A stretch of DNA of 64,000 nt from an uncultured bacterium (lineage in GTDB: Bacteria; Patescibacteriota; Patescibacteriia; Patescibacteriales; UBA12465): positions 243,799 to 307,798 of the forward strand of contig CALKWQ010000023.1 in assembly GCA_938003925.1 (NCBI GenBank), read 5' to 3'. The translations under genes and the position numbers were made by a program. Of this stretch, positions 4,510 to 63,600 are shown piece by piece; positions within the stretch are counted from its first letter, which is position 1; each line of letters opens with the position of its first letter. The notes under the pieces are model-generated. The model searched no databases, had not been told where the DNA came from, and was given only the letters and a program-made list of their open reading frames with translations.

Positions 4510-6399
4510 ATGATTAATTTTAATAAAAACGACGACAAACAAAAAATTACTCTCAATACGCCGATTTCTCTTAAAGGCAAAGAGCGCTCTATTGAGTCTG
4601 ATCCAGAATTGACTAGGGAAATTATTGAAGAGGAAAAAGCTTTTAGGCGCGGCGTTTTGACGGTGCGCGATATTATTTCTCCGGCTAGTCTGCAGATTAC
4701 CCCTAAACATCTTCGCCTTGGTTCTAAATTTGTACGCACTATTTTTGTAATTGGCTATCCTCGCTATATTAGCGTTGGCTGGTTTGCTCCGATCATCAAT
4801 TTAAACCTGACTTTTGACGTTTCCATGTTCTTTTATCCGGTTAAAAGTTCTATTATTTTAAAACAGTTGAAGAATAAAGTTGGTGCCTTAGAGGCTCAGA
4901 TTGTATCTGACGCGGAAAAGGGAGCAGCGCGCGATCCTTTGCGAGAAACAGCTTTGCGCGATATTGAATATTTGCGCGATGCCTTGACTCAGGGTACAGA
5001 AAAATTCTTTCAATTCTCTTTGTATGTTACCTTGTATTCTGACGACTTGGAGGAGCTAGATCGGATGTCGGACCAGGTAGAAGATATTTTTGGTTCACGT
5101 CTAGTTTATTCTCGTCGTGTTTACTTCCAAGCAGAACAGGGATTTAGCTCCACACTACCTCTTTGTAATGATGAGCTCTATATTACCTTCAACATGAACT
5201 CCTCGCCGATTGCAGCTTCTTTCCCCTTTATCTCCAGTGAACTCACCAGCGATCGGGGTATTTTGTATGGTATCAATCGTCATAATAACAGCTTAATTTT
5301 ATTTGATCGCTTTTCTCTGCAAAACGCTAATTCTGTTGTTTTTGCTACCTCTGGAGCTGGTAAATCATACGCTATTAAACTGGAGATCCTGCGCTCTTTA
5401 ATGATGGGCTCTGAAGTGATTGTCATTGATCCCGAGTATGAGTACAAGCATTTAGCGGAGGCGGTGGGCGGTACTTATATTAACATCTCCCTGGCGTCAG
5501 AAAACAAGATTAATCCTTTTGATTTACCTAGAGCGATTGGCGGAGAGGCCAAGCCCAAAGACATTATCCGTAGTGCCGTTATTACACTCAAAGGCTTAGT
5601 GCGCCTGATGTTGGGCAAGCTGAATTATGATGAAGACTCCATTGTTGATCGAGCCCTGTTGGAAACTTATGCGAAAAAGGATATCACGCCCGACTCTGAT
5701 TTATCGGCTATTGAGGCGCCGATTATGGCGGATTTTGAACAGGTCTTAGACGGTATGGAGGGCGGCGGTGATTTAGCTTTACGTCTGAAGAAATTTACAG
5801 AAGGTACTTTTTCTGGTTTGTTAAACAGCCCCACTAATGTAGAGATGAATAATCAATTAGTTTGTTTTTCGGTTCGCGATCTTGAAGACGAGCTGCGTCC
5901 TTTGGCTATTTATACTATTGTTAATTACATCTGGAATATTGTGCGTAGCGAGATGCGCCAGCGTATTTTAGTAATTGATGAAGCTTGGTGGATGATGCAA
6001 AATGAAGACAGCGCCAAATTTATCTTTGCCTTAGTCAAGCGCTGCCGTAAGTATTATCTGGGCGTGACTACTATTACCCAGGATGTTAACGACTTTCTCA
6101 CTTCTCCTTATGGCCAGGCCATCGTGACTAACTCTTCTTTGCAAATTCTCTTGAAGCAATCACCTGCGGCTATTGATTTGATTCAGAAAACTTTCTTATT
6201 GACCGAAGGGGAAAAATACTTACTATTGGAATGTGGCGTAGGTGAAGGCATCTTTTTCGCTGGCAATAAGCATGTGGCCATGAAAGTAGTGGCGTCTTAC
6301 GCTGAAGACCAGCTGATTACTTCTGATCCTCGTCAGCTTCTAGAGATTGAAGAGGCTAAAAAAGAATTCAATGACAGCTTAGCTCAAAATCAAGCTTAA
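4510..6399 (+). CDS. VirB4/TraE-like type IV secretion ATPase (DUF87/AAA_10-type)
   Basis: Walker A FATSGAGKSY, Walker B-like RILVIDEAWWM, 629 aa, with the VirB4-like C-terminal ATPase layout and PrgI-like neighbourhood. Confidence 0.8.
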   Translation: MINFNKNDDKQKITLNTPISLKGKERSIESDPELTREIIEEEKAFRRGVLTVRDIISPASLQITPKHLRLGSKFVRTIFVIGYPRYISVGWFAPIINLNLTFDVSMFFYPVKSSIILKQLKNKVGALEAQIVSDAEKGAARDPLRETALRDIEYLRDALTQGTEKFFQFSLYVTLYSDDLEELDRMSDQVEDIFGSRLVYSRRVYFQAEQGFSSTLPLCNDELYITFNMNSSPIAASFPFISSELTSDRGILYGINRHNNSLILFDRFSLQNANSVVFATSGAGKSYAIKLEILRSLMMGSEVIVIDPEYEYKHLAEAVGGTYINISLASENKINPFDLPRAIGGEAKPKDIIRSAVITLKGLVRLMLGKLNYDEDSIVDRALLETYAKKDITPDSDLSAIEAPIMADFEQVLDGMEGGGDLALRLKKFTEGTFSGLLNSPTNVEMNNQLVCFSVRDLEDELRPLAIYTIVNYIWNIVRSEMRQRILVIDEAWWMMQNEDSAKFIFALVKRCRKYYLGVTTITQDVNDFLTSPYGQAIVTNSSLQILLKQSPAAIDLIQKTFLLTEGEKYLLLECGVGEGIFFAGNKHVAMKVVASYAEDQLITSDPRQLLEIEEAKKEFNDSLAQNQA

Positions 6400-47780: not shown

Positions 47781-50700
47781 GTGCAGAGAAAATTAATTGC
47801 GACAAAAAAAATTAGCTGGGCACCCAAGCTGGGGTTGCTGTTTTTTGTTATGGGTGGGCTGTTTTTCGTTCTCGGTATTCAGCCGTCTCAAGCCGCTTTA
47901 GCTAATTTATACAACAAAGCTACAAGTAGCACTTTAGCGGCTTATGAGTGGAATAATCTGTTGTCCGATTTTGTTACTAAGAATAATGGCGGCGATAGAT
48001 TGGATGGCTACTTCAGTATTAATACGGCGACTTCTTCCACCTATGCTTTAGATATCAATGGTGCTTTGCGCGCCACCAACTTAACAGGCGCTCTGTCTGG
48101 CACCCTGAACGCTGGTAATGTTTCTACCGGTGCCTTCGGTTTAAATACCGGTGGCGGTAATTATAATTTTCCTGCCAATATCGGTATCGGTATCGGTACC
48201 GCCACTCCGGCCTCTATCATCACTCTCGCCAACAATCGCTGGGTGTCTGCTTTAAATAGCACCGGCACTGGTTATGTGAACATGTTTAGAGTGAACGCTA
48301 ACGATGAGATTGAAGTGGGGGGAGCTTTAAACATCGGTCAATTCCAGTTTGCTGCCGATAGCGGTTTTAACACTTTTGTAGATATGCCGGTGACTAATGC
48401 TCCGGCGGCTGGCACTATCATGGGCTACACCATGAAGGTGGATGGGGACAATATTTTAAATGTCTATTCTGAAGCTAATGGTAGCGGCGGTATTCAAAAT
48501 CGTCGCATTGGTATTGGTACTAGTACCCCTGCTTTTACTCTGGATGTTAATGGCATTATCAATGCTTCCGCTCTTTATGTTAATGGCGCTCCTTATATCG
48601 GTAGTCAGTGGACTACTAACGGCACGAGCGTGTATTACAACACTGGTAATGTCGGTATCGGCACTACTACTCCTATCGCCACTTTAGACGTGAACGGGTT
48701 GATTAAGATGCGGACTGCTTTGATTACCGCCAATGAGGATGTAATTAACAAAGGTTATTTGGACTCAGCTTTAGCCAGTACCACCGCCCAAATTATTACC
48801 CAGGTTGCCACCAGTAGTTTCTGGCAGGGCAGCATGGCGGGCAGTATTTATAATGCTAACTCTGGTAGCGTTGGGATTGGGACGACGAATCCGAGTGGGA
48901 AGCTGCATATTACTGATGCTAGTAATACAACGAGGTATGCGTCCTTTAGTTCTACTGGTTTGTTAACCATCAATTTTCAAGATGGTACTGGTAGCATTCC
49001 TTTTCTAACCTTGCAGAATCCTTATGGCAATATGGGTGTTTCTTCGCACATATTGTTTAAGTCTGGTTACGCTGGCACTACTTACGTTGATTCTGGTCGT
49101 ATCACCTTGGGTCATGAAGTTGATTGGACTAGCACGGCTGCCACTAGGGACTCTTATCTCGCTCTTTTTACCTCTCTAGACGGTGCGTTGGGAGAAAAGA
49201 TGAGGATTACGAGCGCTGGTAATGTGGGGATTGGAGTAACTAACCCTATTCATAAGCTTCAAATCAGTTCCGGTAATTTATCTTTAAGTGATGGTAATTT
49301 TATTGATTGGGGTAACGGTAGCACAAGAATTCTTTCAATAACCTCTGTTCCAAATAACAGAATTATGGGATTTGAGACTTGGAACAGCACAACTGGTAGA
49401 GCGGAAAGGATGAGAATAGATGGAGTTGGCAACGTCGGCATCGGGACTACCAACCCCACCGCCAAACTATACGTCAATGGTACTTCCATATTTAATGATA
49501 TTGCCACCTTCACTCAACCAGTAGTAGTGGCCACCCCTATTTTAGGTCCTCATGCTGCTACTAAGAGTTACGTAGATTCTACTATTGCTTCTGCCACTTC
49601 CAGCATTACTCTATGGGGCGGAACAATTGGGGGTAATGTTTGGAATTTAAATTCTGGTAACGTTGGGATTGGGACGACTAGCCCTGGTATTAGCAAATTA
49701 AGAATTGAACATAACGCCTGGACGACATATGGATTAACTTTAAGCAATACCTATACCGGCGGTCGGTCTTGGAATTTGGGCGATGGATTAGCGGCCATGG
49801 GCATGTTTTCTATCAGAGATGAAACCGCTGGTCAGGTCAGGTTGACTATTAATGGCAATGGTAACGTCGGCATTGGTACTACCACTCCTGGCACTAAATT
49901 GACGGTGGTTGGATCAGGTAATTACAGTATTGATGCTGGTAATTATCGCGTCGGCAATGTTGCTACGCCGGTAGCTGCTTTGGATGCGGTTAATAAATCA
50001 TATCTTGATTCCGCGGTTGGCACCGCACAAACCGCCTTTTGGAACATTAACGGTTCTAACCTCTACGCCTCTTCAACCAGTTGGAATGTCGGAGTCGGAA
50101 CCACCGCCCCAGATTCACGCCTTCATATTGTAGGCACCGGCCAACCTCTTTTGCATATTCAAAACTCTAATGGAACCGATGGAATAACCGCCGGAATTTT
50201 ATTTGGAGTTACGAATGCGACTGATTATCAGCAAGCAGGTATATTTTTTGAAAGACTTGGTGGTTCAGCTGAGGGCAGTTTGCATTTCGCCACTAAAAAT
50301 GGTGGCGCTGGTAACGCAACTAAGGCAAATGCAAGGATGACAATAAACGCTAGTGGAAATGTTGGGATTGGAACAACCAATCCAGATGCCAAGCTACAAG
50401 TACAAGGAACTTTAAAGTTACAGAATGTTGTTTCTTCTTCACCTGATACTAATTTTAGAAGAATGATTAATGTTGCTTCGTATAATGGTGGAGGCACTTA
50501 TCGAACTGGTATATTAACTGTTAAATTACCTTCTCCTTTAGCTCATTCAATGGCTAAAATCAAAATTAGTGGTTGGAGTTATGGTCAGGCTTGGGATGTG
50601 ATTGTGTCTGGTTATTTAAATACTACTCAATGGACGCAAGTCGGAGGCACAGTGGTTACAGGTAATCCTCCTTTTAATACCGATCAAATTCGCTTAGTAG

Positions 50701-53700
50701 CTGATAGTGCTTCAGATACTTTCTATATCTTATTAGGCGATGCGGCAACTACTTATGGATATTATGCTAGTATCGGTGTTGATGTAGATAGTATTTACTC
50801 AAACAATCTGCCTTCTACTGGTTGGGATATTTATATTGCTGCTAGTGATCCGTCTTTTGATTATGTAACTACTCCCGCCTCGTCTTTGTATGGTAGTCAT
50901 GGTGCAGATATTAATAACGGTAATGTTTATATTAATGATGCCGTTATTACCTCTGGCACTCCTAAGGCTGCTATTACCAAAGAATACCTCACCTCTTCCT
51001 TAGAAGCTTTTAATTCAGAAACTAATCTATGGAAGTTAAATGGTTCTAACCTCTACGCTTCTACTACTACTTGGAATGTGGGTATTGGTACTAGTAGCCC
51101 AGCCACTAAATTAGATGTCTGGGGTAATATTTATATTAATTCGGCTACACATAATAACACTACTACTCTAGCCTTTGCTACTAATGGTAGTCCCTATCAC
51201 CAGATATTTTCTAATCGGCAAACCGGCGAATTCTCTATAAGGGCTGGCGTTGGCGGCAGTGGCCACTATCTAACCTTTGGTTCAGGTGATGGTTCGGAAA
51301 AAATGAGAATTACTACTACTGGCAACGTCGGGATTGGCACTAACAATCCGGCTGGCTTATTGGAACTGTATAAGGCTGGTTCTAATGCTAACTTAAAGCT
51401 CTATGCTTTTAGCAGCTCTGCTTATGATTCCCAATTGCAATTTTCTGCCAACACTAATGCTGCCGTGGAATATAGCGCTGGTCTAGATAATAATGATAAT
51501 AATTTTAAGATTTACTCTGGTGAAAATGTAAGAGGGACTAATGAGTTCGTAATTAATCCATCGGGCAACGTCGGCATCGGCACCACCAACCCCACCGCCA
51601 AACTATACGTCAATGGTACTTCCATATTTAATGATATTGCCACCTTCACTCAACCAGTAGTAGTGGCCACCCCTATTTTAGGTCCTCATGCTGCTACTAA
51701 GAGTTACGTAGATTCTACTATTGCTTCTGCCACTTCCAGCATTACTCTATGGGGCGGAACAATTGGGGGTAATGTTTGGAATTTAAATTCTGGTAACGTT
51801 GGGATTGGGACGACTAATGCCCTAGAAAAGCTAGATTTAAGAGACGGTAATTTGTATATTTCTGATTCAGATTTGGCAACGAACAGTGCTGGTGGTGCTA
51901 TAAAATTTGGTAGACCCGATGGTTATGCCTCTAATTGGTTGGCATCAATAGGCTCTTATACTACTACTGGCTACGATCGCATAGGTTTAACTTTTAATAC
52001 TTCTTTCGGGACTTCTCAAGAGCGAATAAGAATTACGCCAGAAGGTAATGTTGGGATTGGAACAACAAATCCGACAACGAAGTTGCATATAGAAAATGGA
52101 GTGATAAGGGCAAACAATATAGTAGCCGTTGGCAGTAGTGCCGCCCACCCTACGGGAATTGGATCTTATATAGAACTTTATATGTTGGGTGAAGTGGGAA
52201 GAATTTTGCCTTATGATGGTGCTAGTTATAAAGATTTGGCTATTGGTGATTGGAATGGAGGTAATCCGAATATAATGTTGAAAGTGGGCGGTAATGTCGG
52301 TATTGGAAATGGGTCTCCTTCTAATAAATTGAGTGTTGCGGGTAGTGCAGACTTTTCCGGTAACGTCGGTATCGGGACTACCAACCCCACCGCCAAACTA
52401 TACGTCAATGGTACTTCCATATTTAATGATATTGCCACCTTCACTCAACCAGTAGTAGTGGCCACCCCTATTTTAGGTCCTCATGCCGCTACTAAGAGTT
52501 ACGTAGATTCCACTATTGCTTCCGCCACTTCCAGTATCGCCACTCTCTGGGGTGGAACCGTTGGAGGACATATCTGGAATTTAAATTCAGGTAATGTTGG
52601 TATTGGTGTGGCCAGTCCGGAATCATTATTTGAAGTAGAGCGATCTGCTACTGGGACCGTGGCTACCTTTGACGTTAATACGACTAATAGAGCGACTGTC
52701 CAGTTGAGCGTATTTGATAATTATGCTCAGCTGCAAAGTTACGGTCGCGGGTCTTCTAGCGGTTACTTGTCTATTAATCCTCTAGGTAATAATGTCGGTA
52801 TCGGGACTACTAACCCGGGTTCTTACAAGCTAAACGTTAATGGCAGCACTAATATCAGTGGCAGTTTAAATGTCACTGGCACAACTACCGCCGGAGCCTT
52901 TGTTGGCCCAGTGGTAGGCACAATTAATGCTCGCAACGTTTCTTCCGGGGCTTTTGGCGCTGATGCTGGCGGAGGTAATTTTAGCTTTCCGGCTAATGTT
53001 GGAATTGGGACGACGAATCCTGGTTCTAGGCTGACTATTAATGGGGTTGGGGCTTCTAGTACACCTTTAACCTTGTTGCAGGTGTTTAATATGATTCCTT
53101 ATGCTACAGGCAATGGTCTTGGCGCAGCTCGAATTGAAATTGGTCACGGCACTTTGCATGGTTATATAGAAAGTGCTGCTAATTCTGAGAATAATAGCGC
53201 TGATGGTTATATGGCTTTTGGTACCCGTCGTCCTACTAATAATGTGACTGAGGCAATGAGGATAGATCAATCTGGTAATATCGGAATTGGGACCACTACT
53301 CCGGATGCAAAATTATCCGTTAATGGCGGAGCTACTTTTAATACTGGCGCCGGACTCGCAATTGGTAATGTTGGCAGTTATAATAAATTAATAACTTATT
53401 CTGCTGGTCCCGTTTTTCGTATTTTTACTGGTGGTAGTTACGGTAGTTTTGGCGCTGGCAGTGCTTCTATCGGAGCTTCGTATGCTGCCATATCTTCGCC
53501 TGCGGGCGGGTTAATTGTAGAGGGTAACGTCGGTATCGGCACTTCTAATCCTGGCGCATATCGCTTGAAGGTGGCAGGAGATATGGCTGTTACTGGCACC
53601 TTACAGACTCAGACTGGTTCCGACTTTGCGGAAGAATTTAGTGTAGATTCAGTAATTTTACCAGGTACGGTGGTGGTGATGGCTGATAACGGGCACAAAT

Positions 53701-54005
53701 CGGTTCGAGTCTCAACTGCAGCCTATGATCGCAAGGTTGTAGGTATTGTGTCCGATAATCCCTCTATTATTGCTGGTAGAATTGAAAGCGGACAAAAGGT
53801 TGTGGTGGCTATGATGGGGGTAGTTTCAGTTAATGTCACTAGTGCTAATGGCAAAATTGAAAAGGGGGATTTATTGACTTCTTCTAACCTGCCTGGCTAT
53901 GCCATGAAGGTGACTGAGTTTGCGCCGGGAACTGTAATTGGCAAAGCCTTGGAAGATCTAGTGGGAAAGAAAGGGAAGATTAAGGTGTTGGTAAATTTGC
54001 AGTAA
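47781..54005 (+). CDS. giant (2074 aa) secreted fibre/adhesin-like protein built from about 20 GNVGIGTTxPxxKLxVxG modules
   Basis: GTG start and an N-terminal signal anchor. The G-N-V-G-I-G-T-T-x-P...KL.V.G motif recurs about 20 times and is also seen in phage tail-fibre-like proteins. A distinct C-terminal roughly 150-aa domain follows (GSDFAEEF...VVGIVSDNPSII...GDLLTSS..PGYAMK...GTVIGKALE). Confidence 0.85.
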   Translation: MQRKLIATKKISWAPKLGLLFFVMGGLFFVLGIQPSQAALANLYNKATSSTLAAYEWNNLLSDFVTKNNGGDRLDGYFSINTATSSTYALDINGALRATNLTGALSGTLNAGNVSTGAFGLNTGGGNYNFPANIGIGIGTATPASIITLANNRWVSALNSTGTGYVNMFRVNANDEIEVGGALNIGQFQFAADSGFNTFVDMPVTNAPAAGTIMGYTMKVDGDNILNVYSEANGSGGIQNRRIGIGTSTPAFTLDVNGIINASALYVNGAPYIGSQWTTNGTSVYYNTGNVGIGTTTPIATLDVNGLIKMRTALITANEDVINKGYLDSALASTTAQIITQVATSSFWQGSMAGSIYNANSGSVGIGTTNPSGKLHITDASNTTRYASFSSTGLLTINFQDGTGSIPFLTLQNPYGNMGVSSHILFKSGYAGTTYVDSGRITLGHEVDWTSTAATRDSYLALFTSLDGALGEKMRITSAGNVGIGVTNPIHKLQISSGNLSLSDGNFIDWGNGSTRILSITSVPNNRIMGFETWNSTTGRAERMRIDGVGNVGIGTTNPTAKLYVNGTSIFNDIATFTQPVVVATPILGPHAATKSYVDSTIASATSSITLWGGTIGGNVWNLNSGNVGIGTTSPGISKLRIEHNAWTTYGLTLSNTYTGGRSWNLGDGLAAMGMFSIRDETAGQVRLTINGNGNVGIGTTTPGTKLTVVGSGNYSIDAGNYRVGNVATPVAALDAVNKSYLDSAVGTAQTAFWNINGSNLYASSTSWNVGVGTTAPDSRLHIVGTGQPLLHIQNSNGTDGITAGILFGVTNATDYQQAGIFFERLGGSAEGSLHFATKNGGAGNATKANARMTINASGNVGIGTTNPDAKLQVQGTLKLQNVVSSSPDTNFRRMINVASYNGGGTYRTGILTVKLPSPLAHSMAKIKISGWSYGQAWDVIVSGYLNTTQWTQVGGTVVTGNPPFNTDQIRLVADSASDTFYILLGDAATTYGYYASIGVDVDSIYSNNLPSTGWDIYIAASDPSFDYVTTPASSLYGSHGADINNGNVYINDAVITSGTPKAAITKEYLTSSLEAFNSETNLWKLNGSNLYASTTTWNVGIGTSSPATKLDVWGNIYINSATHNNTTTLAFATNGSPYHQIFSNRQTGEFSIRAGVGGSGHYLTFGSGDGSEKMRITTTGNVGIGTNNPAGLLELYKAGSNANLKLYAFSSSAYDSQLQFSANTNAAVEYSAGLDNNDNNFKIYSGENVRGTNEFVINPSGNVGIGTTNPTAKLYVNGTSIFNDIATFTQPVVVATPILGPHAATKSYVDSTIASATSSITLWGGTIGGNVWNLNSGNVGIGTTNALEKLDLRDGNLYISDSDLATNSAGGAIKFGRPDGYASNWLASIGSYTTTGYDRIGLTFNTSFGTSQERIRITPEGNVGIGTTNPTTKLHIENGVIRANNIVAVGSSAAHPTGIGSYIELYMLGEVGRILPYDGASYKDLAIGDWNGGNPNIMLKVGGNVGIGNGSPSNKLSVAGSADFSGNVGIGTTNPTAKLYVNGTSIFNDIATFTQPVVVATPILGPHAATKSYVDSTIASATSSIATLWGGTVGGHIWNLNSGNVGIGVASPESLFEVERSATGTVATFDVNTTNRATVQLSVFDNYAQLQSYGRGSSSGYLSINPLGNNVGIGTTNPGSYKLNVNGSTNISGSLNVTGTTTAGAFVGPVVGTINARNVSSGAFGADAGGGNFSFPANVGIGTTNPGSRLTINGVGASSTPLTLLQVFNMIPYATGNGLGAARIEIGHGTLHGYIESAANSENNSADGYMAFGTRRPTNNVTEAMRIDQSGNIGIGTTTPDAKLSVNGGATFNTGAGLAIGNVGSYNKLITYSAGPVFRIFTGGSYGSFGAGSASIGASYAAISSPAGGLIVEGNVGIGTSNPGAYRLKVAGDMAVTGTLQTQTGSDFAEEFSVDSVILPGTVVVMADNGHKSVRVSTAAYDRKVVGIVSDNPSIIAGRIESGQKVVVAMMGVVSVNVTSANGKIEKGDLLTSSNLPGYAMKVTEFAPGTVIGKALEDLVGKKGKIKVLVNLQ
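49428..49679 (+). repeat. 252-bp cassette, copy A (encodes GNVGIGTTNPTAKLYVNGTSIFNDIATFTQPVVVATPILGPHAATKSYVDSTIASATSSITLWGGTIGGNVWNLNSGNVGIGTT)
   Basis: It differs from copy B at only two synonymous sites (49445 and 49448). 49449-49679 reads identical to 51585-51815. Confidence 0.9.
51564..51815 (+). repeat. 252-bp cassette, copy B
   Basis: See copy A. The flanks of A and B are unrelated at the DNA level. Confidence 0.9.
52359..52607 (+). repeat. cassette copy C (mosaic)
   Basis: The 5' roughly 140 bp are near-identical to A and B. The 3' roughly 110 bp carry substitutions (catgccgct, gattccact, an extra Ala codon, ctctggggtggaac) that match copy D in the second giant gene. Confidence 0.8.
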
Positions 54006-54014
54006 ATTCTTTAC

Positions 54015-54260
54015 AAATGAATATCCCTGTGTCCGCTTCTACCACTCTTTAGAGGCATTAACAGTCAAGGGGTCCGCGCCAACAAAAACCGCTAATGCCG
54101 GTGGTGTCGGATGACTTGATTTTATCCATCACTAGTCATCCCCCGAAGGGGCGACTAGCAAGAGAAAATCCCAGCGATCAAGCTGGGACTCATTGTCAAG
54201 AAAACAGCGTGCGGCCGTCAGGTACGTACGTTCTAGGAGCGGTCACAAGGATATTCATTT
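54015..54260 (+). ncRNA. candidate RT-associated structured non-coding RNA (retron msr/msd-like or DRT-type template RNA)
   Basis: 54015-54038 pairs with 54237-54260: 22 of 24 positions, including aaatgaatatcc.tgtg against cacaaggatattcattt. The enclosed roughly 200 nt are visibly more GC-rich than the flanks. They contain hairpins 54054-54060/54093-54099, 54132-54158 (ctagtc..cccc gaa gggg..gactag) and 54169-54188 (tcccagc/gctggga). There is no ORF. A 6-bp hairpin plus T5 (54267-54287) lies just before the RT ATG. Confidence 0.55.
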
Positions 54261-54289
54261 TTTAGTAGGGGCTTAATTGCCCTTTTTGT

Positions 54290-55498
54290 ATGTATCAACA
54301 GATTATTGCCCTTAAAAACTTGGAAGCAGCTTATTTGAAAATCGCCGGTGATATGGAATTAGATGGGCGCTCCGGTCGTTATCGGGGCTGGGATAGCTGG
54401 AAAATGGCTGATGTAGAAGTGAGAACTTCAGCTTTGTTGCGGTTAATTAGGGCGGAATTACGCGATTTAAAACCCATTGCTCCGGCTGTACTATTTAAAA
54501 TTCCTAAAAAGAGTAATCCTCAGAAACTCAGAGAAATTTATATCTATAATTGGTCGGAGCGCATCAAGGCCCAGGCTATTTATCAGGTGGTCGAGCCGGT
54601 TTTTGATGCTTATTTTTCCCCTTATCTCTTTTCCTATCGCTCGTCTCACGCAAGTTATTTTGCAGCGCGTAGCGCCGTCAGGCATTACCGTAGATATTGG
54701 CACCGAGATTCAGTGTTGATTGGTGATTTGTCTGACTATTCTAATTATATCCAGCATGACCAGTTAAAAGAGAAAATCAAGAAATTGCAACTAGACAAGA
54801 AAGTTGAAGAGCTGTTATTCTTATTCATCGGCAATGAAGTTATTCGTGATGGCGCGATTGTTAAGCCGTCAGTTGGCTTGGTTCAGGGTGTGCCGTTGAT
54901 TGCTCTGTTTAATAATCTGTATCTAGATGATTTTGATAAATACGTTGGGCAGCGGGCTGATTTTTATCGCCGCGTAGGCGATGATTTGGCTATCTTTGAC
55001 CGTTTGTCTGCACGTTTATTGCCTCTGCGTGATCGCTTAGAGCAGGAGGCTAAAGTCTTAGGTTTGAAAATTAACCAAGACAAGACTGGTTTGCGTTTAG
55101 CCTCTGAGCCCTTTAATTTTCTAGGTTATCATTTTCAAGCTGGACAAGTGTCCTTACCGCCCAATTTCGTTAAGGCCTTAGTTAATAAATGGCGGCAACA
55201 ATTTTCTTACTACGGCAGTCAGCGCCTTGTCCTTAAGAGTCGCATGTTAAAAAACTCTTTACGCCAAGACAGGCAGAATTTACGCGAACAATTGCGGCAG
55301 TTATCTCAGCAGAAGAAGTTGGTCACAGATGAAGCGCAGTTGCGCCGTTTATCTGAAGCTTTTTTTCGGGTTTTGACTCGTTATTTCTTCAAAGATTATT
55401 CACCTCGTCATCGTCGTCTTTTGGCCGGAAAACTTGAAAAGTTAGGTTTAAAATCGGTATACAAACATTTTTTATCAGCTCGTTATGACTCAGATTAG
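54290..55498 (+). CDS. reverse transcriptase, unclassified (not DGR-type; retron, group-II-like or UG-like)
   Basis: RT motifs in order: FKIPKKSNPQKLREIY (1/2), FSYRSSHAS (3), LIGDLSDYSNYIQHD (4/A), GLVQGVPLIALFNNLYLDDFD (5/B), FYRRVGDDLAIF (C; VGDD instead of YADD), GLKINQDKT (6), FNFLGYHF (7). These are followed by a roughly 120-aa basic helical tail. Confidence 0.85.
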   Translation: MYQQIIALKNLEAAYLKIAGDMELDGRSGRYRGWDSWKMADVEVRTSALLRLIRAELRDLKPIAPAVLFKIPKKSNPQKLREIYIYNWSERIKAQAIYQVVEPVFDAYFSPYLFSYRSSHASYFAARSAVRHYRRYWHRDSVLIGDLSDYSNYIQHDQLKEKIKKLQLDKKVEELLFLFIGNEVIRDGAIVKPSVGLVQGVPLIALFNNLYLDDFDKYVGQRADFYRRVGDDLAIFDRLSARLLPLRDRLEQEAKVLGLKINQDKTGLRLASEPFNFLGYHFQAGQVSLPPNFVKALVNKWRQQFSYYGSQRLVLKSRMLKNSLRQDRQNLREQLRQLSQQKKLVTDEAQLRRLSEAFFRVLTRYFFKDYSPRHRRLLAGKLEKLGLKSVYKHFLSARYDSD

Positions 55499-57188
55499 GG
55501 ACAATGTTAAATTATTGCGTCAACGCCGGGCACAAAGATTGGCTAATAAGCCACTGTGGCCCAGTCAAGAGCACTTGGTCTATTTGCGTAATTTTTTTAG
55601 GCGGCAGCATCGCTTGTTGTCGATTAGTTTGATGGCCTTGTTACTGCAGGGACTATTTGAAATCGCTCTGATTGTTATTAGCCACCGGTATCTAAAGAGT
55701 TTTTCTGGTTACGAATTAGCCGTTAGTCGTCGTGCCTTATTTATCTTATTGGTAGTAATGGCGACCGTGTATCTGTTGGCAGCCTTTGCAGCGATTAAGG
55801 GGGAGCGCACCTTGATTGTGCGATTGATTAATGACTTACGTGCCCGTTGGTTTAAGTTGTTTTTATATAAGCGGCGCGAGGAAAATAATTTGGAAAATAA
55901 GGGTATGTTGCTGGCTAAAATCTCTTATCATCTGCCTTTACTCAGCACTGGTCTGTCTAATTCGTTGGCCGGAGTCGTGCGTTGGCTGATGTTTGTCCTG
56001 ATTTTGTTGTTCTTAGCTTTTGTTTTTACCTATAAGCTTTTGTGGTTTGTAGCTGGGGCGGTATTAGTTGGTCTATTGGTTGGAGCGGCTGCTTTTTGGA
56101 TTTCCTATAATTACGTTACCAAAGAAACTACTTTCTATTCCCAAATCATCAGGTTGGTGGATTTTAACTTATCCGACTGGTCGTTTGTAAAACAATATCG
56201 ACGTGAACGGGCGGTAGTGAAGGAGTTTGATCAGTTGGTAGAATTAGATTCATACTTTCGAGTACGCCGCGATCTCTGGCTGCGTTTCAGTATCAGTTTA
56301 GTGTTTGTGCTCTTAGTTTTTATCAGCTTTATGGTCGGTTCTTGGCATAGTCGCTTGGAATACTTTTTCGGAGCCGCTAGCTTGGACGCCAGATTCGTCT
56401 TGGTAATTGCTCTAGTCTATTTTTCTCGTCTACTCTATGAAAGTTTGCGGGTAGGTCTGTATTCCGTACCCTTGCTTTTAGGTCTGAAGCTGGCTATACC
56501 TGATTTTTTGCCGCGGAAACTAGGGGCGGGGAAACTAATTACAGCACCAGCGCTGGTTTTCAGCGCAGCTAAAGCCAAGCTCTTTGCTCGTGATCATAAA
56601 TATCGTCGTTTCAATTTCGAATTTGTGCCAGGCGGGCGCTATGTTATCAGTGGCCCCTCCCGTTCTGGTCGTAGTTCTTTGGCTAAGTTACTGGCCGGTC
56701 AAGCTGTTTATGGCCGTCGCGCCTGGTTAATTAAGGTGGGACGTAGGCGCTATTTCTATAACGAATTTTTTGATAAATACGCGGGCACCTATTATTTTGA
56801 TCCCCACTTTAACAGTGCTCGTTCTTTGTTGGAGGTAGTGGTGGGCAAAGAGAAGACGGCTATTACCCCAGCTGATTTAGCTACCGCTTCTACTTTAGTT
56901 AATGAACATCAGGAGCTAAGGGCCATCTTTTTTGAACGCGAAGACTGGCGTTATCCAGCTAATAGGTTTTGCAATAATCGTAAAAGCGTCTTTTTAGTGC
57001 AGCTGCTTTACTGCTTAATCAACAAGCCCTATTTAGTAATGATAGATAATGAGTGGCTTGAGACTGAAGATGCCGATATTAGCGCTTGGTTGCGCCTATT
57101 GGATCAGTTATTACCGAAGAGCGCTGTAGTGGCCTTCACTTCTACTAATAGAAAATTATTTACTAACCAACATCATCATGAAATTTAA
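55485..57188 (+). CDS. ABC-exporter-like protein (6-TM domain plus degenerate nucleotide-binding domain)
   Basis: It overlaps the RT stop by 14 nt. The N-terminal roughly 340 aa have the ABC_membrane-type six-helix layout. In the C-terminal NBD, Walker A is GPSRSGRSS (Lys to Arg), the signature is FCNNR in place of LSGGQ, and Walker B is YLVMIDNE. Confidence 0.65.
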   Translation: MTQIRDNVKLLRQRRAQRLANKPLWPSQEHLVYLRNFFRRQHRLLSISLMALLLQGLFEIALIVISHRYLKSFSGYELAVSRRALFILLVVMATVYLLAAFAAIKGERTLIVRLINDLRARWFKLFLYKRREENNLENKGMLLAKISYHLPLLSTGLSNSLAGVVRWLMFVLILLFLAFVFTYKLLWFVAGAVLVGLLVGAAAFWISYNYVTKETTFYSQIIRLVDFNLSDWSFVKQYRRERAVVKEFDQLVELDSYFRVRRDLWLRFSISLVFVLLVFISFMVGSWHSRLEYFFGAASLDARFVLVIALVYFSRLLYESLRVGLYSVPLLLGLKLAIPDFLPRKLGAGKLITAPALVFSAAKAKLFARDHKYRRFNFEFVPGGRYVISGPSRSGRSSLAKLLAGQAVYGRRAWLIKVGRRRYFYNEFFDKYAGTYYFDPHFNSARSLLEVVVGKEKTAITPADLATASTLVNEHQELRAIFFEREDWRYPANRFCNNRKSVFLVQLLYCLINKPYLVMIDNEWLETEDADISAWLRLLDQLLPKSAVVAFTSTNRKLFTNQHHHEI

Positions 57189-58419
57189 GTTTAAACATTG
57201 GCGCTGGCTGTGGGCGCCCCTAGTAATTATCTTGGGTCTATTATTACTGGCCTTAGTGGCAAGACAGGGAGGGGCGTTAGTAGAAAAATGGTTGCTTATC
57301 AAAAGTCGGCCAGCTGTCAGCGTTACTACGGTCTTACCCGTGTCAGCCGAATTGCTATTTAATCACGAGCCGGGAGTGGAGATTTTTTCGGAACGGATTG
57401 TTACTGAAATTGGCCAGGCGCAGCAGAGCTTAGAAATTGCGATGTACGCTTTTTCTTCGGTTAAGCTGAAAGAAGCGGTTTATGCTGCTCAGCGGCGCGG
57501 GGTAAAAGTAACTATTATCACAGATTTTCGTAAACGAGAAAATCACGAGGCTTTTTTTGCAGATGCGGTTAGAGACATCAAGCGCTTAGAGGCTGGGGCT
57601 GAAACCGCCAGTAAGACTATTTTGATGCACCATAAGTTTGCTTTAATTGATCGAGGCACCGCCAATCAGAAATTACTATTTGGCGCCTATAATTGGACGG
57701 ATTTACAAGAAAAGTATGATCCCAGTTTCTTGATGGTGAGCACTAGTTCGGAGTTGGTTGCTAGTTTCGGTCGAGAATTTGATCGTTTATTGGCCGGCCA
57801 AGCCGGAACTCAGAAGCTGCGTGACCAGGCTTATCATCCCTGGGATTTAGAGCTTAAGGCCGCTGGCTATACTTCGGAAGTCTGGTTTAGTCCGGGGCGA
57901 GAGGGCGATGGCATTAAGACCAGGCTTTCTTCTTTGATTAATAGCGCTCAACAAGAGATCCAAATTATGATTTGGGACTTTACCGACAAGGAATTAGCAG
58001 TGGATTTAATTCGTCGTGCCCGCCAAGGCGTAAAAGTGACCATCATCACTGATACCTGGAATTTTTACAACCAAAATTCAGTATTCTTATACTTAGCCGA
58101 AGCTAAACAGCGTTATCAGTTAGATAATTTTGAATTAATTGTCGATAAAGTAGGCGGTGAAAAGACCATTGCCGCTGTCAACGCTCCTGATTTAGAGGCT
58201 GACTTTGATCCCTTCTTGCATTTTCACGTTTTGATTGTAGATGGGCAAAAAGTTTTGTTTGGCACCAACAATTGGAGTCGTGCCGGCTCTTATTTCAATG
58301 ACGAGTCAATGATGATTAGTGAAGACCCGGCTGTGGCTGCTGCTTTTCAGGAGGCTTTCAGGTATCAGTATCAACACAATACTACGCCATTAGTGGAGGC
58401 TGGGGTAATTGTTGATTAA
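57178..58419 (+). CDS. membrane-anchored phospholipase-D/HKD-superfamily protein (nuclease-like, two HKD domains)
   Basis: It overlaps the upstream stop by 11 nt. N-terminal TM helix. HKD 1 is HHKFALID...GAYN. HKD 2 is HFHVLIVD...GTNN, with the Lys replaced by His. Confidence 0.8.
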   Translation: MKFKFKHWRWLWAPLVIILGLLLLALVARQGGALVEKWLLIKSRPAVSVTTVLPVSAELLFNHEPGVEIFSERIVTEIGQAQQSLEIAMYAFSSVKLKEAVYAAQRRGVKVTIITDFRKRENHEAFFADAVRDIKRLEAGAETASKTILMHHKFALIDRGTANQKLLFGAYNWTDLQEKYDPSFLMVSTSSELVASFGREFDRLLAGQAGTQKLRDQAYHPWDLELKAAGYTSEVWFSPGREGDGIKTRLSSLINSAQQEIQIMIWDFTDKELAVDLIRRARQGVKVTIITDTWNFYNQNSVFLYLAEAKQRYQLDNFELIVDKVGGEKTIAAVNAPDLEADFDPFLHFHVLIVDGQKVLFGTNNWSRAGSYFNDESMMISEDPAVAAAFQEAFRYQYQHNTTPLVEAGVIVD

Positions 58420-58466: not shown

Positions 58467-59057
58467 ATGTCTGAACAAGCAAAAAGTTCTCTTTCTAGCC
58501 ATCGCCGTGTCTGGCTATTTTCGGCCCTTATTTTTTTCCTGCTAGCTTTAGCCGCCGCTGGCCCCTTAGTTTTTAAAGCTTTCGCTGACGCCAGTTCTGC
58601 TCATGAGCAGGTTATTCAAGCCCGCAATGCTGCCATCAGTGAAGCTATCCTAAATAATGATTATAATGCCTGGGATTCTTTAGTTCAGGATCAAACACTT
58701 AAGCAACAGATTAACTCTAGTAATTTCGAGGCCTTTGCTGAAGCCTATCGTCTTTTAGAGAAGGGCATGATTACCGAGGCAGAGTTACTGAAACGGCAGG
58801 TAGGTATTAAGGAGGAGATGAATCAAAACGCTGTAGTGAGCAGCATGATTGGCCAGGCAATCGTCAATAAAGACTATAACCTGTGGCGCCAAGCCGTGGG
58901 CAATGATTATGCTCAGGGTGTAGTTACTGCTGGTAATTTTGATAAATATGCCAGCTTTCTCCAAGATGTGGAAAAAGGCAGGTTAAATCGCGCCGTTCGC
59001 TATCAGTATGATTTGGGGGTAAAGCAGAAAATGGATTACAGTTCTAGTCGCGAGTAG
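58467..59057 (+). CDS. membrane-anchored hypothetical protein with an internal duplication
   Basis: TGcTATAAT at 58429-58437 and one TM helix. Repeated AI(L/V)N(N/K)DYN.W ... NF(E/D)..A ... EKG segments. Confidence 0.5.
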   Translation: MSEQAKSSLSSHRRVWLFSALIFFLLALAAAGPLVFKAFADASSAHEQVIQARNAAISEAILNNDYNAWDSLVQDQTLKQQINSSNFEAFAEAYRLLEKGMITEAELLKRQVGIKEEMNQNAVVSSMIGQAIVNKDYNLWRQAVGNDYAQGVVTAGNFDKYASFLQDVEKGRLNRAVRYQYDLGVKQKMDYSSSRE

Positions 59058-59252: not shown

Positions 59253-59264
59253 TTTTTGCAATTT

Positions 59265-59825
59265 ATGCTTAACAAAAAAATAATTATTGCCGTCTTGTCA
59301 GTGGTGGTGGTGATGTTAGTAGTAGCTTTGTGGTGGCGCAATGGTGACAAGGAGATTAAGGTGACTGAAGTTAAGGTAACGCCGGAGCAAGTCACTAACA
59401 CCACTCCCTTGCCAGGCGGCAATACCATCAATGAAGAGCAAATTGTAGTGACTGAGGCTGGTACGCCGGTGCAGGTAAATGTGATGCCCAATAATCCCGA
59501 AGCCCCTAAAGCGGTAGTGGTATCAACTAAGAAACTGCCGCAGAGCGCAGTGCAAATCAAGGTGGGTGATAGTAAGTTTGAGCCCTCAACCTTTACCGTG
59601 CAGCCTGGAGCGCCGGTGTCTTTAGCTTTTTCTTCGGTTGATAAAAAAGTTCATGTCATTACTTTTTCTGACCCCTCTTTGGCGGCTCTGTCTTTCGGGG
59701 TGGGGGCCAATCAGACTAAGGCTATGACTTTCAATGCTCCTAGCCAGGCGGGTGAGTATGAGTTCCACTGTGATGTTCCCGGTCATCGAGCAGCTGGAGA
59801 AGTGGGGGTCATGATTGTGCAATAA
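59265..59825 (+). CDS. membrane-anchored cupredoxin (type-1 copper-like) domain protein
   Basis: The first ATG is at 59265. TM anchor, then a C-terminal beta domain with VHVITF...EYEFHCDVPGHRAAGEVGVMIV, giving a His ... Cys-x4-His ... Met ligand pattern. Confidence 0.65.
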   Translation: MLNKKIIIAVLSVVVVMLVVALWWRNGDKEIKVTEVKVTPEQVTNTTPLPGGNTINEEQIVVTEAGTPVQVNVMPNNPEAPKAVVVSTKKLPQSAVQIKVGDSKFEPSTFTVQPGAPVSLAFSSVDKKVHVITFSDPSLAALSFGVGANQTKAMTFNAPSQAGEYEFHCDVPGHRAAGEVGVMIVQ

Positions 59826-59846
59826 TTGTTAACTTATTATATCTCT

Positions 59847-60470
59847 ATGTCTAAATTTCTAACTAAAAATCTACCCGGTAACCAGAAAGCCATCCTCCTT
59901 GCTTTATTAGGTGTAGCTATTGTCTTAGTGGTCCTAGTGGCGATAGATTTGTTTCGTAAACCGGTGGCGGAAACACCGATAATAGAGGGGGCCAATGTTC
60001 CCACTGAGGCTTTACCCGATCAGGAAGATTATCAAGATGTCGTAGCTATGCCTCAAGTGCAGAAAGATGAATTTAAGGAAGAAGTACCAGTAGATATTGT
60101 AGTGCCGGAGATCGACACTCAATTAACCGAGGAACAAAAAAAAGAAATAGCCCTACCGACAGTGACAGTGGCAGCGGCTCCTGGTGTTGAAGCTAAGTTC
60201 CGTAGCTTCCAGATTAAAGCGGAGGGTGGAGCGTTTGTGCCGACCAAAGTTATTGCTAATGCCGGCGATACCGTTCACATTGATTTCACGGCTGTAGATG
60301 GTAATTATGACATTGTATTTCCGAGCTACAACATGATGCAGACAGCTAGCCAGGGTCAGACAAAAATCTTAGAGTTCCAAGCCCTGCAATCCGGCAGCTT
60401 TACCTACTACTGTTCCAGCTGTGGCGGTCCTGAGAGCGGGCCTAAAGGCAATATTATTATTGTGGAATAA
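59847..60470 (+). CDS. membrane-anchored cupredoxin-fold-like protein lacking the full copper ligand set
   Basis: ATG at 59847 and a TM anchor. The C-terminal domain parallels the upstream gene (GDTVHIDFT...FTYYCSSCGGPESGPKGNIIIVE) but has no His/Met after the Cys pair. Confidence 0.5.
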   Translation: MSKFLTKNLPGNQKAILLALLGVAIVLVVLVAIDLFRKPVAETPIIEGANVPTEALPDQEDYQDVVAMPQVQKDEFKEEVPVDIVVPEIDTQLTEEQKKEIALPTVTVAAAPGVEAKFRSFQIKAEGGAFVPTKVIANAGDTVHIDFTAVDGNYDIVFPSYNMMQTASQGQTKILEFQALQSGSFTYYCSSCGGPESGPKGNIIIVE

Positions 60471-60656: not shown

Positions 60657-63600
60657 ATGCTTAAATCGTCCCTAAAATTAACTGCGAAAACGCTGGTTTT
60701 ATTGTTAATTCCGGCGGCGTTTTTATTTATTGAGACTCATTCTACTGAGGCGGCAGTTGGTTTATCAGTGGGCAACACTGGTTTAAATTTATTACAGGCA
60801 GAGAATTTATTTTATGGTAACGTCGGTTCTACCAGCCATGCTTCCAGTAGTTTCTTATTATTCCAAAACAATAGCGTGGATAGATTGAGAATTGATATCT
60901 TGGGCAACTTAACCACGTCCGGAACCATTACTGCTGGTGCTTTTTCTGGTCCAATCACCGGAGGTTCTATCTCGGCCGCTAATGTCTCCGCTGGTAATTT
61001 TGGATCCAATGTTGGTAATGGTAATTTCAGTTTTCCTGGTAATGTGGGAGTGGGCACGACAAATCCTTTGGGTCTTTTGCATATTTATTCAACAGCTTCT
61101 TCATCTCAGGCTTTATTCATTGCTAATAATGGTTATGTTGGAATTGGTAGAAATAATCCAGGTTTTAGATTGGATGTACAGGGCGATACTTACATTCAAG
61201 GGTCCTTATATAATTGGGGAAATGCATCTATACAGACCTTAGCTTTAGGTTACGGTGCAGCATATCCGGCAATTTTAACAACTCAAACCGCCAATGAAGA
61301 TTTAACTATTGACCCTGCCGGCGTAGGTAACATTATTATGCAAGGTAACGTCGGGATAGGGACGACGAATCCATTAGCAACTTTAGATATTTTGCATCCC
61401 AATTCTGCCGCCGGGGGCATAAGACTTCAATCTTCATTAGATGATTTAACTCTAAAGAGGGGCAGAATAAAAACAGGACATTATAATAATAGCGAAGAGC
61501 CGGTGACGTTACTTATTACCAGTAATTCAAGCGGCGAGAATTTAATTGCTCTTGGTGGCAGCAGTACTGTTGAAAATTCTGCAAATACAATTTCATTTTA
61601 TACAGGCGAAACAGCGGCAACTCTAAACGGTACGGAGCGAATGAGAATAAATTCTGCCGGCAACGTCGGCATCGGCACCACCAATCCTACTGCTAAACTA
61701 TATGTTAATGGTACTTCCATATTTAACGATATTGCTACCTTCACTCAACCAGTAGTAGTCTCCGCTCCTATTTTGGGTCCTCATGCCGCTACTAAGAGTT
61801 ACGTAGATTCCACTATTGCTTCTGCCACTTCCAGTATTGCCACTCTCTGGGGTGGAACAATTGGAGGAAATGTTTGGAATTTAAATTCTGGTAATGTTGG
61901 GATTGGTAATAATAATCCACTAGCCAAATTGCAGATTAATAATCAGGGAGCATTTAATGCGGTCATTCCTGGACCTTCGGCTTATTACGGTCTCCATTTT
62001 AATGGCCAGACTACTGCAGATTATGCCACGGGTATTACTTGGAATGGCGGCACCACGGGGACTCAGGCTGGTTTATATGTCCAAGGCTCAGGTGCTTATG
62101 GTACCAAAATGTATTTTGCTACAACTCAGAGTTATGCTACCGGCGCTCAAACCAGAATGATGATTGATCATAGTGGTAACGTCGGCATTGGCACCACTAC
62201 TCCGGGCACCAGACTAACTGTAATTGGTTCAGGTAATTATAGTATTGATGCTGGCAATTATCGTATCGGCAATATTGCTGCACCGGTATCAGCTAATGAT
62301 GCTGTTAATTTATCTTATTTGCAATCGGCTGTCGGTACTGCTCAAAACGCCTACTGGAATCTATCTGGCAGTACTTTGTCGGCCTCATCTACCACTTGGA
62401 ATGTGCGCGTTGGCACCACCACCGCGGGCACTGACAAAATTGGAGTTGCCGGTGGCCGTATTTCCACTTTAGATACCAGCGACATCTATGCTGGTGGTCA
62501 GGTTAATTCAGCTGGTACTGGCGCTAACGCTTTTGCTGGTCGGTTAGCGGTTGGGCAAATTGCAGTGGCCACACCCAAGTTTTTTGTAAATGGTGGCGCG
62601 GCTATCGGTACGAATTATTCTACCGCTAACATCGCGACTGGCACCATGGCTTTAGAGACCAATTTAGGTATCGGTTTAACTAATCCCACTGCTCGCTTAC
62701 ATGTCTTTGACCCCACGACGACGACGGGCTACAACACCTATTTGTATAATAATGGCATCACCTCAGGCACAATGCTGGGTTTAGTCCAAGCTTCTTCTAC
62801 CTTTAACGGTATTGGCTTGTATATGAATTTTCAATCCGGCACTGGCACTAGCACTGCTAATTTTGCCGATTTTAGGATTAATAATTCTCAGCGTTTTGCT
62901 GTTAATTATCGTGGTGGCATTACCAGCACCTATGCTAATGATGCCGATAATGTTAACTTAAATAGTTTCACGCTTACTAGTGGTAATGCCAGTGCAGCTT
63001 CATATAATGCTTTGGCAGTTAGCAGTCCGAGTCGGCTCATAGTTTCGCAAACTTCCGCCACTGAAGATGAGTTGTTTGATAATAATTACGAGGGCTTTAA
63101 ATTTAACTCCGGTACTTATAACAACATGGGTGGCTTCTATGTTCGCATGAGGAGGGGCACTACTACCCCAGTTAATGCGGGTGGAGCTTATTTCCGCGCC
63201 CATATTTACACTGATAACGGTGGTCAGCCTGGCACCAATGTCACTAATAGCCCTTCTATTTATGTTGCGCGCTTAGGTACCACTTATGCTGATTATTATT
63301 TTCCTTTAAGCGTTGCGCTGACCGCCAATACTAACTATTGGATTTTGCTTTATAAAGTTGGTGGCTTTAACGCTGCCGACCAAGTGTATTTTTATACTCA
63401 TCCTACTTCCGGCAGCGCTGAATGGGCTTACGGCAACGGGACATCCTGGTCAGTTGACCCAACTCGTCGCGGTTATTTTAGAGTGTATTCGCGTAGCGCT
63501 AATGGTATTACCGCCACTTCTGATGTTAACTATGGTGTTTATGGTAGCTCTACTTTTGGCACTGGAGTCAGGGGCGCCTCTAATGCCGGTATTGGTGTGT

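Follow-up and report, generated by a model that had tools for sequence, protein, structure and literature searches.

A pseudoknotted non-coding RNA directly upstream of a group II intron-like reverse transcriptase in Patescibacteria

Organisation of the locus

We analysed a 64,000-nucleotide (nt) stretch of contig CALKWQ010000023.1 (assembly GCA_938003925.1) from an uncultured member of the Patescibacteriota, hereafter the window, in which a reverse transcriptase (RT) gene is preceded by a structured element at 54015-54260. A sequence-only reading of the window had described this element as a non-coding unit of roughly 246 nt and had placed the RT start at 54290. Both statements hold. The RT begins at 54290, and the element is real, as it folds far better than shuffled sequence, shows covariation and is conserved upstream of homologous RTs. 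We can confirm that it is a structured non-coding RNA (ncRNA) tied to the RT. The RT gene is followed by genes for an ABC-exporter-like protein, a protein with two PLD domains and a small membrane-anchored protein, and the whole cassette lies on the + strand:

54015..54260, + strand, structured ncRNA
54290..55498, + strand, RT, 402 amino acids (aa), group II intron-like (Pfam RVT_1, RVGDD catalytic motif)
55485..57188, + strand, ABC-exporter-like protein, 567 aa (Pfam ABC_membrane), start overlapping the RT stop by 14 nt
57178..58419, + strand, double-PLD nuclease-like protein, 413 aa, with an N-terminal membrane anchor, start overlapping the ABC stop by 11 nt
58467..59057, + strand, small membrane-anchored protein, 196 aa, accessory member of the cassette

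Structure of the RNA

The RNA is closed by a long stem, P1, which is formed by a 27-nt inverted repeat (54015-54041 with 54234-54260) whose arms are 89% complementary and lie 192 nt apart. Among all inverted repeats of the window whose arms are separated by more than 100 nt, this one ranks first. The closing repeat reported from the sequence alone is genuine, but slightly longer than the 24 positions it was given. A second long-range repeat, 22 nt in length and 82% complementary with 113 nt between its arms, is found at 62839-62860 / 62974-62995. When the region 54006-54289 was folded as RNA, as the sequence-only reading had suggested, the energy was -117.2 kcal/mol, against -76.2 ± 5.1 kcal/mol for 200 dinucleotide-preserving shuffles (z = -8.06). 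The minus strand folds almost equally well (z = -7.68), so folding energy by itself says nothing about the strand. The GC content of the element was said to lie clearly above that of its flanks; the direction is right, but the excess is modest (0.49 against 0.43-0.46). The parts of the RNA in the window are listed below, with pair counts taken from the alignments described in the next section:

54015..54041, + strand, P1 5' arm, 27-nt inverted repeat; P1 supplies 27 of the 58 predicted pairs, most of them with compensatory changes
54042-54044, + strand, unpaired junction, CCA in the window and A(A/C)(A/C)A across the family
54045..54054, + strand, P2, 3-bp mini-hairpin CUC-UUUA-GAG; 97% of cells paired, two of three pairs changed on both sides
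54055..54060, + strand, pseudoknot 5' strand GCAUUA, partner 54093-54098; both partners changed in all six pairs, which form in 100% of the 23 copies
54063-54069 / 54115-54121, + strand, P3; together with P4, 13 of 16 pairs changed on both sides
54072-54080 / 54103-54112, + strand, P4, counted jointly with P3
54088-54091 / 54099-54102, + strand, P5; three of four pairs changed on both sides, and its loop (54093-54098) is the pseudoknot 3' strand
54122..54168, + strand, variable region with the hairpin 54132-54158; length and sequence vary among loci and tandem copies, with hairpins (one to three) in every copy
54169..54188, + strand, P6 hairpin UCCCAGC/GCUGGGA; in most copies a hairpin ending ..GGAC before the CUC of the next segment, read by eye without a pair count
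54189..54207, + strand, J6/7, single-stranded A/U-rich segment CUCAUUGUCAAGAAAACAG; sequence conserved, unpaired in folds
54208..54230, + strand, P7 hairpin, directly 5' of the P1 3' arm; six outer pairs all compensated and none broken in 23 copies
54234..54260, + strand, P1 3' arm; holds AAGGA, a Shine-Dalgarno-like box where the arm abuts the RT ATG in relatives
54267..54287, + strand, terminator-like hairpin and T-run, limited to one subclade

Like the pseudoknotted 5' core, the 3' part (P6, J6/7 and P7) is conserved, so that the variable region lies between two conserved parts. Three internal hairpins had been picked out from the sequence. Two are present, one at 54132-54158 (CTAGTC..CCCC-(C)GAA-GGGG..GACTAG) and one with the stem TCCCAGC/GCTGGGA (54169-54175 / 54182-54188). 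The third, ggcatta/taatgcc, is the pseudoknot rather than a simple hairpin, and its pairing crosses helices P3 and P4. An ATG-initiated open reading frame (ORF) of 56 codons also runs through the element (54095-54265), but the window and the related locus L001 read through the conserved motif in different frames, and going by these sequences the ORF is most likely spurious.

Conservation, covariation and strand

The loci that we fetched, referred to below by L numbers, cover RT identities from 74% down to 28%. The RNA lies directly upstream of the RT in all 21 loci for which upstream DNA was available and whose RT is at least 37% identical, and the 250-300 nt 5' of the RT can be aligned across loci with plain compensatory changes. 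Covariation, which the sequence-only reading had named as one way to check the structure, is strong. From 12 loci RNAalifold predicted 58 pairs, and in 41 of them both partners have changed with the pairing retained. For the 5' domain we used an alignment of 23 copies, which was compared with a hand-written structure that includes the pseudoknot and with 500 shuffles. In this domain 90.4% of cells were paired, against 75.4 ± 1.0% in the shuffles, and 24 of the 29 pairs had changed on both sides; the covariation score was 0.536, a value matched by none of the 500 shuffles, against 0.253. With the partners displaced by 1-3 columns, only 28-47% of cells were paired. The pseudoknot is paired in every one of the 23 copies and all of its six pairs covary, as seen in the variants GGCAUUA/UAAUGCC, GGUAUCG/CGAUACC and GAUGUUA/UAACAUC. 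P1 likewise occurs in every copy; it measures 22-30 bp in the majority and 8-11 bp in L021. Arms that belong to one copy can pair at 19.8 of 22 positions, compared with 11.7 when the two arms come from different loci (23 copies). Across the copies P1 contains 39 G-U pairs, and conserved G-U pairs are also found in P3 and P4. As these pairs would be A-C mismatches on the minus strand, we conclude that the RNA is read from the + strand, which is the strand of the RT.

A covariance model of the 5' domain, R1, scores 87 bits at 54030-54125 in the window and finds a single match for each RT, which in every case lies immediately 5' of the gene and on the same (+) strand. A scan of 303 kb, comprising the window and 23 loci, found no extra copies outside the position upstream of the RT. 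The model also matches loci outside the set from which it was built: L033 with 99 bits (E 3.5e-19), two tandem copies in L036 with 48.6 and 46.8 bits and, weakly, L034 with 16.5 bits at the expected position. In L034 the helices P2, P3, P4 and P5 and the pseudoknot (UUGUCG/CGACAA) can still be drawn despite almost no shared sequence. Rfam 15, searched over 53000-56000 at E <= 10, returned only three chance-level matches, all of them within the RT gene.

The named sources of the RT family are mostly metagenome-assembled genomes of Patescibacteria, which are tiny. The same RT/ABC-like/PLD cassette is present in L034 (4468-9160) and L035, on a GC-rich contig of 5.47 Mb, too large for a small genome of the Patescibacteria kind, and is therefore not confined to Patescibacteria. 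An IS3-type transposase has inserted upstream in one of these two related contigs. No close homologue was found among 50,697 phage records, which argues against a phage origin.

The genes that precede the RNA differ between loci. In the window the upstream gene is a 2074-aa ORF (47781-54005) with tail-fibre-like repeats and no Pfam match, and 5' of it lie minor-pilin and PilX-like genes and a type IV pilus operon. This giant protein ends in ...VLVNLQ, with a weak match to the Peptidase_G2 IMC-like family at its C-terminus, and the same ending is found before the ncRNA in nine loci (the window, L001-3, L012, L018 and L029-31). Elsewhere the upstream genes encode another large protein, ribonucleotide reductase, DsbB, tRNAs or an ABC-F protein, and in one IMG/VR contig the RNA and RT come after a 1405-aa protein, the contig ending within the RT. 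It had been considered that the element might be only the 3' untranslated region of the giant gene; this can be ruled out, since the RNA follows the RT to loci with other upstream genes. Insertion sequences lie nearby in L011, L021 and L034, and tRNA genes in L028. In L011 (1-212) the RT is immediately preceded by a hairpin and the C-terminal end of an IS200/IS605-type TnpA, at the place where the ncRNA would be expected, and the contig ends there.

Tandem copies and the start of the RT

Several loci, five by our count, carry more than one copy of the RNA upstream of a single RT, with three copies in L021 (5148-5939) and two each in L004 (914-1519), L007 (5388-5996) and L036 (4435-4718). The L013 record duplicates the upstream sequence of L004, and the records L014 and L007 cover one and the same part of a contig. 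Tandem copies have a common scaffold and different variable hairpins. When orthologous copies in L004 and L007 are compared, the stems of the variable region have changed on both sides, which points to a structural rather than a sequence-coding role for these hairpins. A TATAAT- or TACAAT-like box lies 10-35 nt upstream of most copies, and in L021 every copy has a TATAAT-like box upstream and its own hairpin and T-run downstream.

In the window a terminator-like hairpin (54267-54284) followed by a T-run to 54287 separates the RNA from the RT, and is the sole such site in 53500-54800. This agrees with the mini-terminator described from the sequence, except that it ends 2 nt and not 3 nt short of the ATG. 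Only L001, L002, L003 and L012 retain it, with compensatory changes. Most loci have no terminator, and there the P1 3' arm ends 1-6 nt before the RT ATG or overlaps it; in L036 the ATG lies inside P1. As other loci join the P1 3' arm directly to the RT start, we take the terminator to be a feature of one subclade. The idea that it would let the RNA outnumber the RT mRNA is plausible for that subclade, given the compensated hairpin in the relatives and the self-contained units of L021, but does not extend to the majority of loci, where the terminator is missing. In the loci without it, an AGGA box in the P1 3' arm lies at Shine-Dalgarno distance (8-14 nt) from the ATG. Because the arm that carries this box abuts or overlaps the start codon, P1 probably also controls translation of the RT.

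The reverse transcriptase

By sequence and by predicted structure, the RT is group II intron-like and does not belong to the retron clade. Its best profile match is the generic PADLOC RT (3e-34), followed by UG26 (7e-32, RT core only), and it also matches a CRISPR RT-Cas1 profile. The UG26 match amounts to 108.6 bits over profile positions 49-295 of 398, in a PADLOC collection that carries no curated cut-off, and the next UG profiles, UG17 (8e-20) and Drt9 (2.2e-14), again cover the RT core only. The NCBIfam group II intron RT model TIGR04416 reaches 1.1e-30, with 107 bits against a cut-off of 300. Retron profiles match weakly (PADLOC RT_III-A 1.9e-8; NCBIfam retron 1.6e-4), with 21.1 bits for retron_St85_RT against a cut-off of 235, and the NCBIfam models Drt2 and Drt3a give 42.8 bits against 390 and 30.2 bits against 200. 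Among solved structures the closest sequences are the GsI-IIC RT (1.7e-18) and Cas6-RT-Cas1, with DRT2 at just 1e-3.

An AlphaFold2 model of the RT built from 40 homologues had a predicted local distance difference test score (pLDDT) of 90.8. Foldseek superposed this model on GsI-IIC (6ar1) over its full length, with a TM-score of 0.82 by query and 0.80 by target and a root mean square deviation of 3.4 Å. The scores for other RTs were 0.68 for DRT9, 0.68 by query length for the RT of a diversity-generating retroelement (DGR), 0.61 for G2L4, 0.54 for DRT2 and 0.44 for retron Ec86; the DGR RT ranks under GsI-IIC and covers less of the query. With GsI-IIC and G2L4 the RT shares an N-terminal extension, a thumb and a C-terminal helical domain. 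It differs from group II intron RTs in having RVGDD, which is invariant across the family, instead of YADD, and in being found with a dedicated ncRNA of about 250 nt and an operon of membrane proteins rather than with intron RNA. Motif 4 reads QGVPLIALFNN. The family is discrete, with 46 clusters (50% identity) at E <= 1e-30 and lengths of about 400-430 aa, and beyond that threshold only generic RT-core matches are found.

Partner proteins

The order RT, ABC-like protein, PLD protein is kept in every locus that extends far enough. A PDB sequence search with the ABC-like protein gave no match, and its fold was assigned from a predicted structure (pLDDT 80), which resembles exporters of the MsbA/TmrAB/TAP type with a transmembrane domain and a nucleotide-binding domain. 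The nucleotide-binding domain is degenerate family-wide: the catalytic glutamate is missing from Walker B, which reads DN, the LSGGQ signature is absent, and in the clade of the window the Walker A lysine is replaced by arginine. These changes make ATP hydrolysis by the protein doubtful. The ABC-like family forms 73 clusters at 90% identity, many on contigs equal in size to the RT-bearing ones, and both of the distant members whose contigs we fetched adjoin an RT.

The PLD protein has a canonical first motif (HHKFxxxD), while the second is HxH instead of HxK in all homologues. Among solved structures the protein comes closest to the nucleases Zucchini and NucT. At its N-terminus, as at that of the 196-aa protein, basic residues lead into a conserved hydrophobic anchor, and by the positive-inside rule this arrangement suggests that the PLD domain and the 196-aa protein are extracytoplasmic. 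The 196-aa protein is present in 14 of 14 loci (12 distinct) whose RT is at least 51% identical and that extend far enough, and was not seen in the most distant loci. In L015 (755-1345) its homologue lies upstream of the ncRNA rather than downstream of the PLD gene; as L015 keeps it despite the altered gene order, the protein appears to belong to the module. PADLOC recognises just the RT core and the PLD domains, and NCBIfam names no gene of the cassette above its cut-off.

Downstream of the cassette in the window (59256-60470) lie genes for two cupredoxin-like proteins, membrane-bound or secreted, which are also found there in relatives with RT identity of at least 57%, the second of them only at 64% or more. 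Both are absent from more distant loci, and they are probably neighbours rather than members.

Discussion

The reading that we favour, and hold to be probable, is that 54015-54260 is the gene for an ncRNA of about 246 nt on the + strand, from an undescribed family, which acts as the dedicated partner of the adjacent RT, as its scaffold and probably also as its template. In kind, the system would be an RT with a dedicated ncRNA, resembling retron and DRT systems but matching none of them. By analogy, we propose that the RT binds the conserved pseudoknotted core and might copy part of the RNA into a small cDNA, as the RTs of retrons, DRT2, DRT9 and DRT10 do, with either the variable hairpins or the single-stranded segment J6/7 as the template. 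The resulting RNA-protein or RNA-cDNA complex would then control the membrane-associated ABC-like/PLD pair, or pass a product to it. P1 could have further roles, hiding the ribosome-binding site of the RT where it abuts the ATG and offering a double-stranded site of 22-30 bp for release of the RNA by an RNase III-type enzyme; in the subclade of the window, the terminator between the RNA and the RT may let the RNA exceed the RT mRNA. The most likely role for such a cassette, judged from comparable systems, would be in defence or conflict. An accessory, defence-like module would fit the patchy genomic contexts and the nearby insertion sequences and tRNA genes.

DRT2, DRT9, DRT10 and the uncharacterised group UG26 likewise have a free-standing RT, some 400 aa long, and a structured ncRNA 5' of it. 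In DRT2, DRT9 and DRT10 the upstream ncRNA serves as scaffold and template (PMC12632851, PMC9226505), and the RNA of DRT2 is also described as pseudoknotted (PMC12039810). Here, by contrast, the matches to the DRT profiles cover the RT core only and fall far under family level, and the fold is nearer to GsI-IIC than to DRT9 or DRT2. The partners differ as well, SLATT being the partner in DRT10 and a Vsr-like YcjD lying beside some UG26 RTs (9 of 35 members) (PMC9226505), whereas in the present cassette the neighbours are the ABC-like and PLD proteins and there is no Vsr-like gene. By analogy only, the arrangement also recalls telomerase RNA, which likewise combines a pseudoknot and a helix that closes the RNA with a single-stranded segment that has a stable hairpin upstream, but we see no significant repeat-addition signature and no sign of kinship, and the best match of the RT is not in the TERT/UG clade. 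The searchable literature yielded no description of this RT/RNA/ABC/PLD system, and a 2026 preprint on ncRNA mining (10.64898/2026.09.22.753630), judged by a full-text term count only, never mentions Patescibacteria, PLD or ABC.

Several observations weigh against the RNA being a dedicated partner and template. No G follows the P1 5' arm in any of the 23 copies, where the junction reads A(A/C)(A/C)A, and no priming site can be assigned. A 2'-OH primer other than G is conceivable; the RNA of DGRs primes from an A. The RNA has no poly-U template tract. In J6/7 a repeat-addition (A-B-A') pattern was not significant among the 23 copies: the longest repeat averages 3.87 nt, against 3.32 nt in shuffles, and one copy reached P < 0.05 with three more at 0.05-0.06. 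Short direct repeats are thus no commoner in J6/7 than in shuffles, and a telomerase- or DRT10-like repeat template there finds no significant support. The nearest solved relatives of the RT also do without a separate ncRNA acting in trans: group II intron RTs operate with the RNA of the intron that encodes them, and no RNA partner is known for G2L4. In the most distant locus, L032, whose RT is 28% identical and still has the ABC-like and PLD genes as neighbours, the 180-nt spacer upstream of the RT (4822-5000) has no R1 match and folds weakly; the RNA there has either been lost or has diverged past recognition. PADLOC gives no system-level match for the cassette, and an outward-facing PLD would be unusual for an abortive-infection effector.

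The sequence-only reading had recognised the geometry of a retron in the long terminal stem and the multi-hairpin RNA 5' of the RT, and this much is borne out. The ncRNA lies upstream of the RT on the same strand between a1/a2-like inverted repeats of 22-30 bp, it combines a conserved 5' part with variable hairpins, and conserved downstream accessory genes could be effectors; in L004 and L007 these hairpins keep their structure while their sequence shifts, as msd stems do. In a true retron this would be an msr-msd RNA, in which the 2'-OH at the junction primes copying of the hairpins inside the 3' arm, and the RT-bound branched multicopy single-stranded DNA would restrain the ABC-like and PLD effectors. 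What the geometry does not explain is an RT of group II intron lineage that lies outside the retron clade by its profile matches (RT_III-A, retron_St85_RT) and its TM-score to Ec86, together with the missing branching G. We also know of no retron with a pseudoknot core or tandem ncRNA arrays, and the retron types set out by Mestre et al. in 2020 reportedly include none with ABC-exporter-like or PLD effectors, here an exporter-like protein and a membrane-anchored PLD. A true retron therefore seems unlikely to us. We give a similarly low rating to the possibility that the RNA acts mainly in cis, as a leader to which the RT may bind and which would hide the ribosome-binding site or start codon, or end transcription, so as to set expression of the RT, ABC and PLD genes without ever being a template. 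Group II intron proteins bind DIVa, which offers a model for such an RT-bound leader. The group II intron fold of the RT, the close approach of the P1 3' arm and its AGGA box to the ATG in most loci, the ATG within P1 in L036 and the terminator-like hairpin in the clade of the window are all in its favour. Hiding a ribosome-binding site, however, needs far less than an RNA of 170-310 nt that has a pseudoknot and variable hairpins; in an array no copy but the last reaches the ATG, and those of L021 resemble separate transcription units. A leader role is moreover compatible with that of a dedicated RT partner and need not replace it.

Two further explanations start from the genes around the RNA. 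DGRs are common in Patescibacteria, and an RT with a non-coding stretch right after a 2074-aa fibre-like surface protein, an arrangement common to nine loci, could be read as a DGR whose template repeat diversifies that giant protein. Yet blastn with a word size of 7 found no similar copy of the element in the 64 kb, and no 40-nt window on either strand of the same 64 kb matched with three or fewer mismatches at positions other than A. Nor does the upstream protein vary at its C-terminus, which is conserved. The RNA also accompanies the RT in loci without such a gene, and motif 4 of the RT (QGVPL..L.N) is not the I/LGxxxSQ signature of DGR RTs. On these repeat scans and the type of RT we rejected a DGR, and give it almost no credence. 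Nearly as improbable is the remnant of a decayed group II intron, of which the 5' domains would still carry the protein gene. The nearest relatives of the RT in sequence and structure are group II intron RTs, and its fold fits, but the RNA domains of an intron, including domain V, were not found: no Rfam group II intron family matches within 53000-56000 at E <= 10, and the overlap of the ABC-like gene with the RT stop leaves no space in which domains V and VI could lie. The RNA is instead a closed unit of about 250 nt, with strong purifying selection on a fold of its own and tandem duplication.

The apparently outward-facing PLD, the ATPase-degenerate exporter and the frequent pilus and giant adhesin neighbours would also allow for a function at the cell envelope. 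It is possible, though we put this forward only tentatively and at well under even odds, that a group II intron-type RT has been domesticated independently together with a pseudoknotted ncRNA of its own, that the variable hairpins multiplied in the arrays are exchangeable modules, whether sensor, decoy or template, and that the complex is coupled to an ATPase-degenerate ABC exporter and an outward-facing PLD nuclease. If this is true, then in the episymbiotic Patescibacteria the system could act in host or phage interaction at the envelope, or even in the export of nucleic acid, rather than in cytoplasmic abortive infection.

RTs with a dedicated ncRNA, such as those of retrons, DRT2, DRT9 and DRT10, have each revealed a new mode of making DNA and have become tools for genome engineering. 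The system described here would add another lineage to them, with a group II intron-type RT, a new and well-defined RNA fold, tandem arrays and membrane-protein partners. The covariation-backed structure and its exact coordinates make it directly testable by experiment. It is also found mainly in Patescibacteria, a group whose biology is poorly known and in which few such systems have been described.

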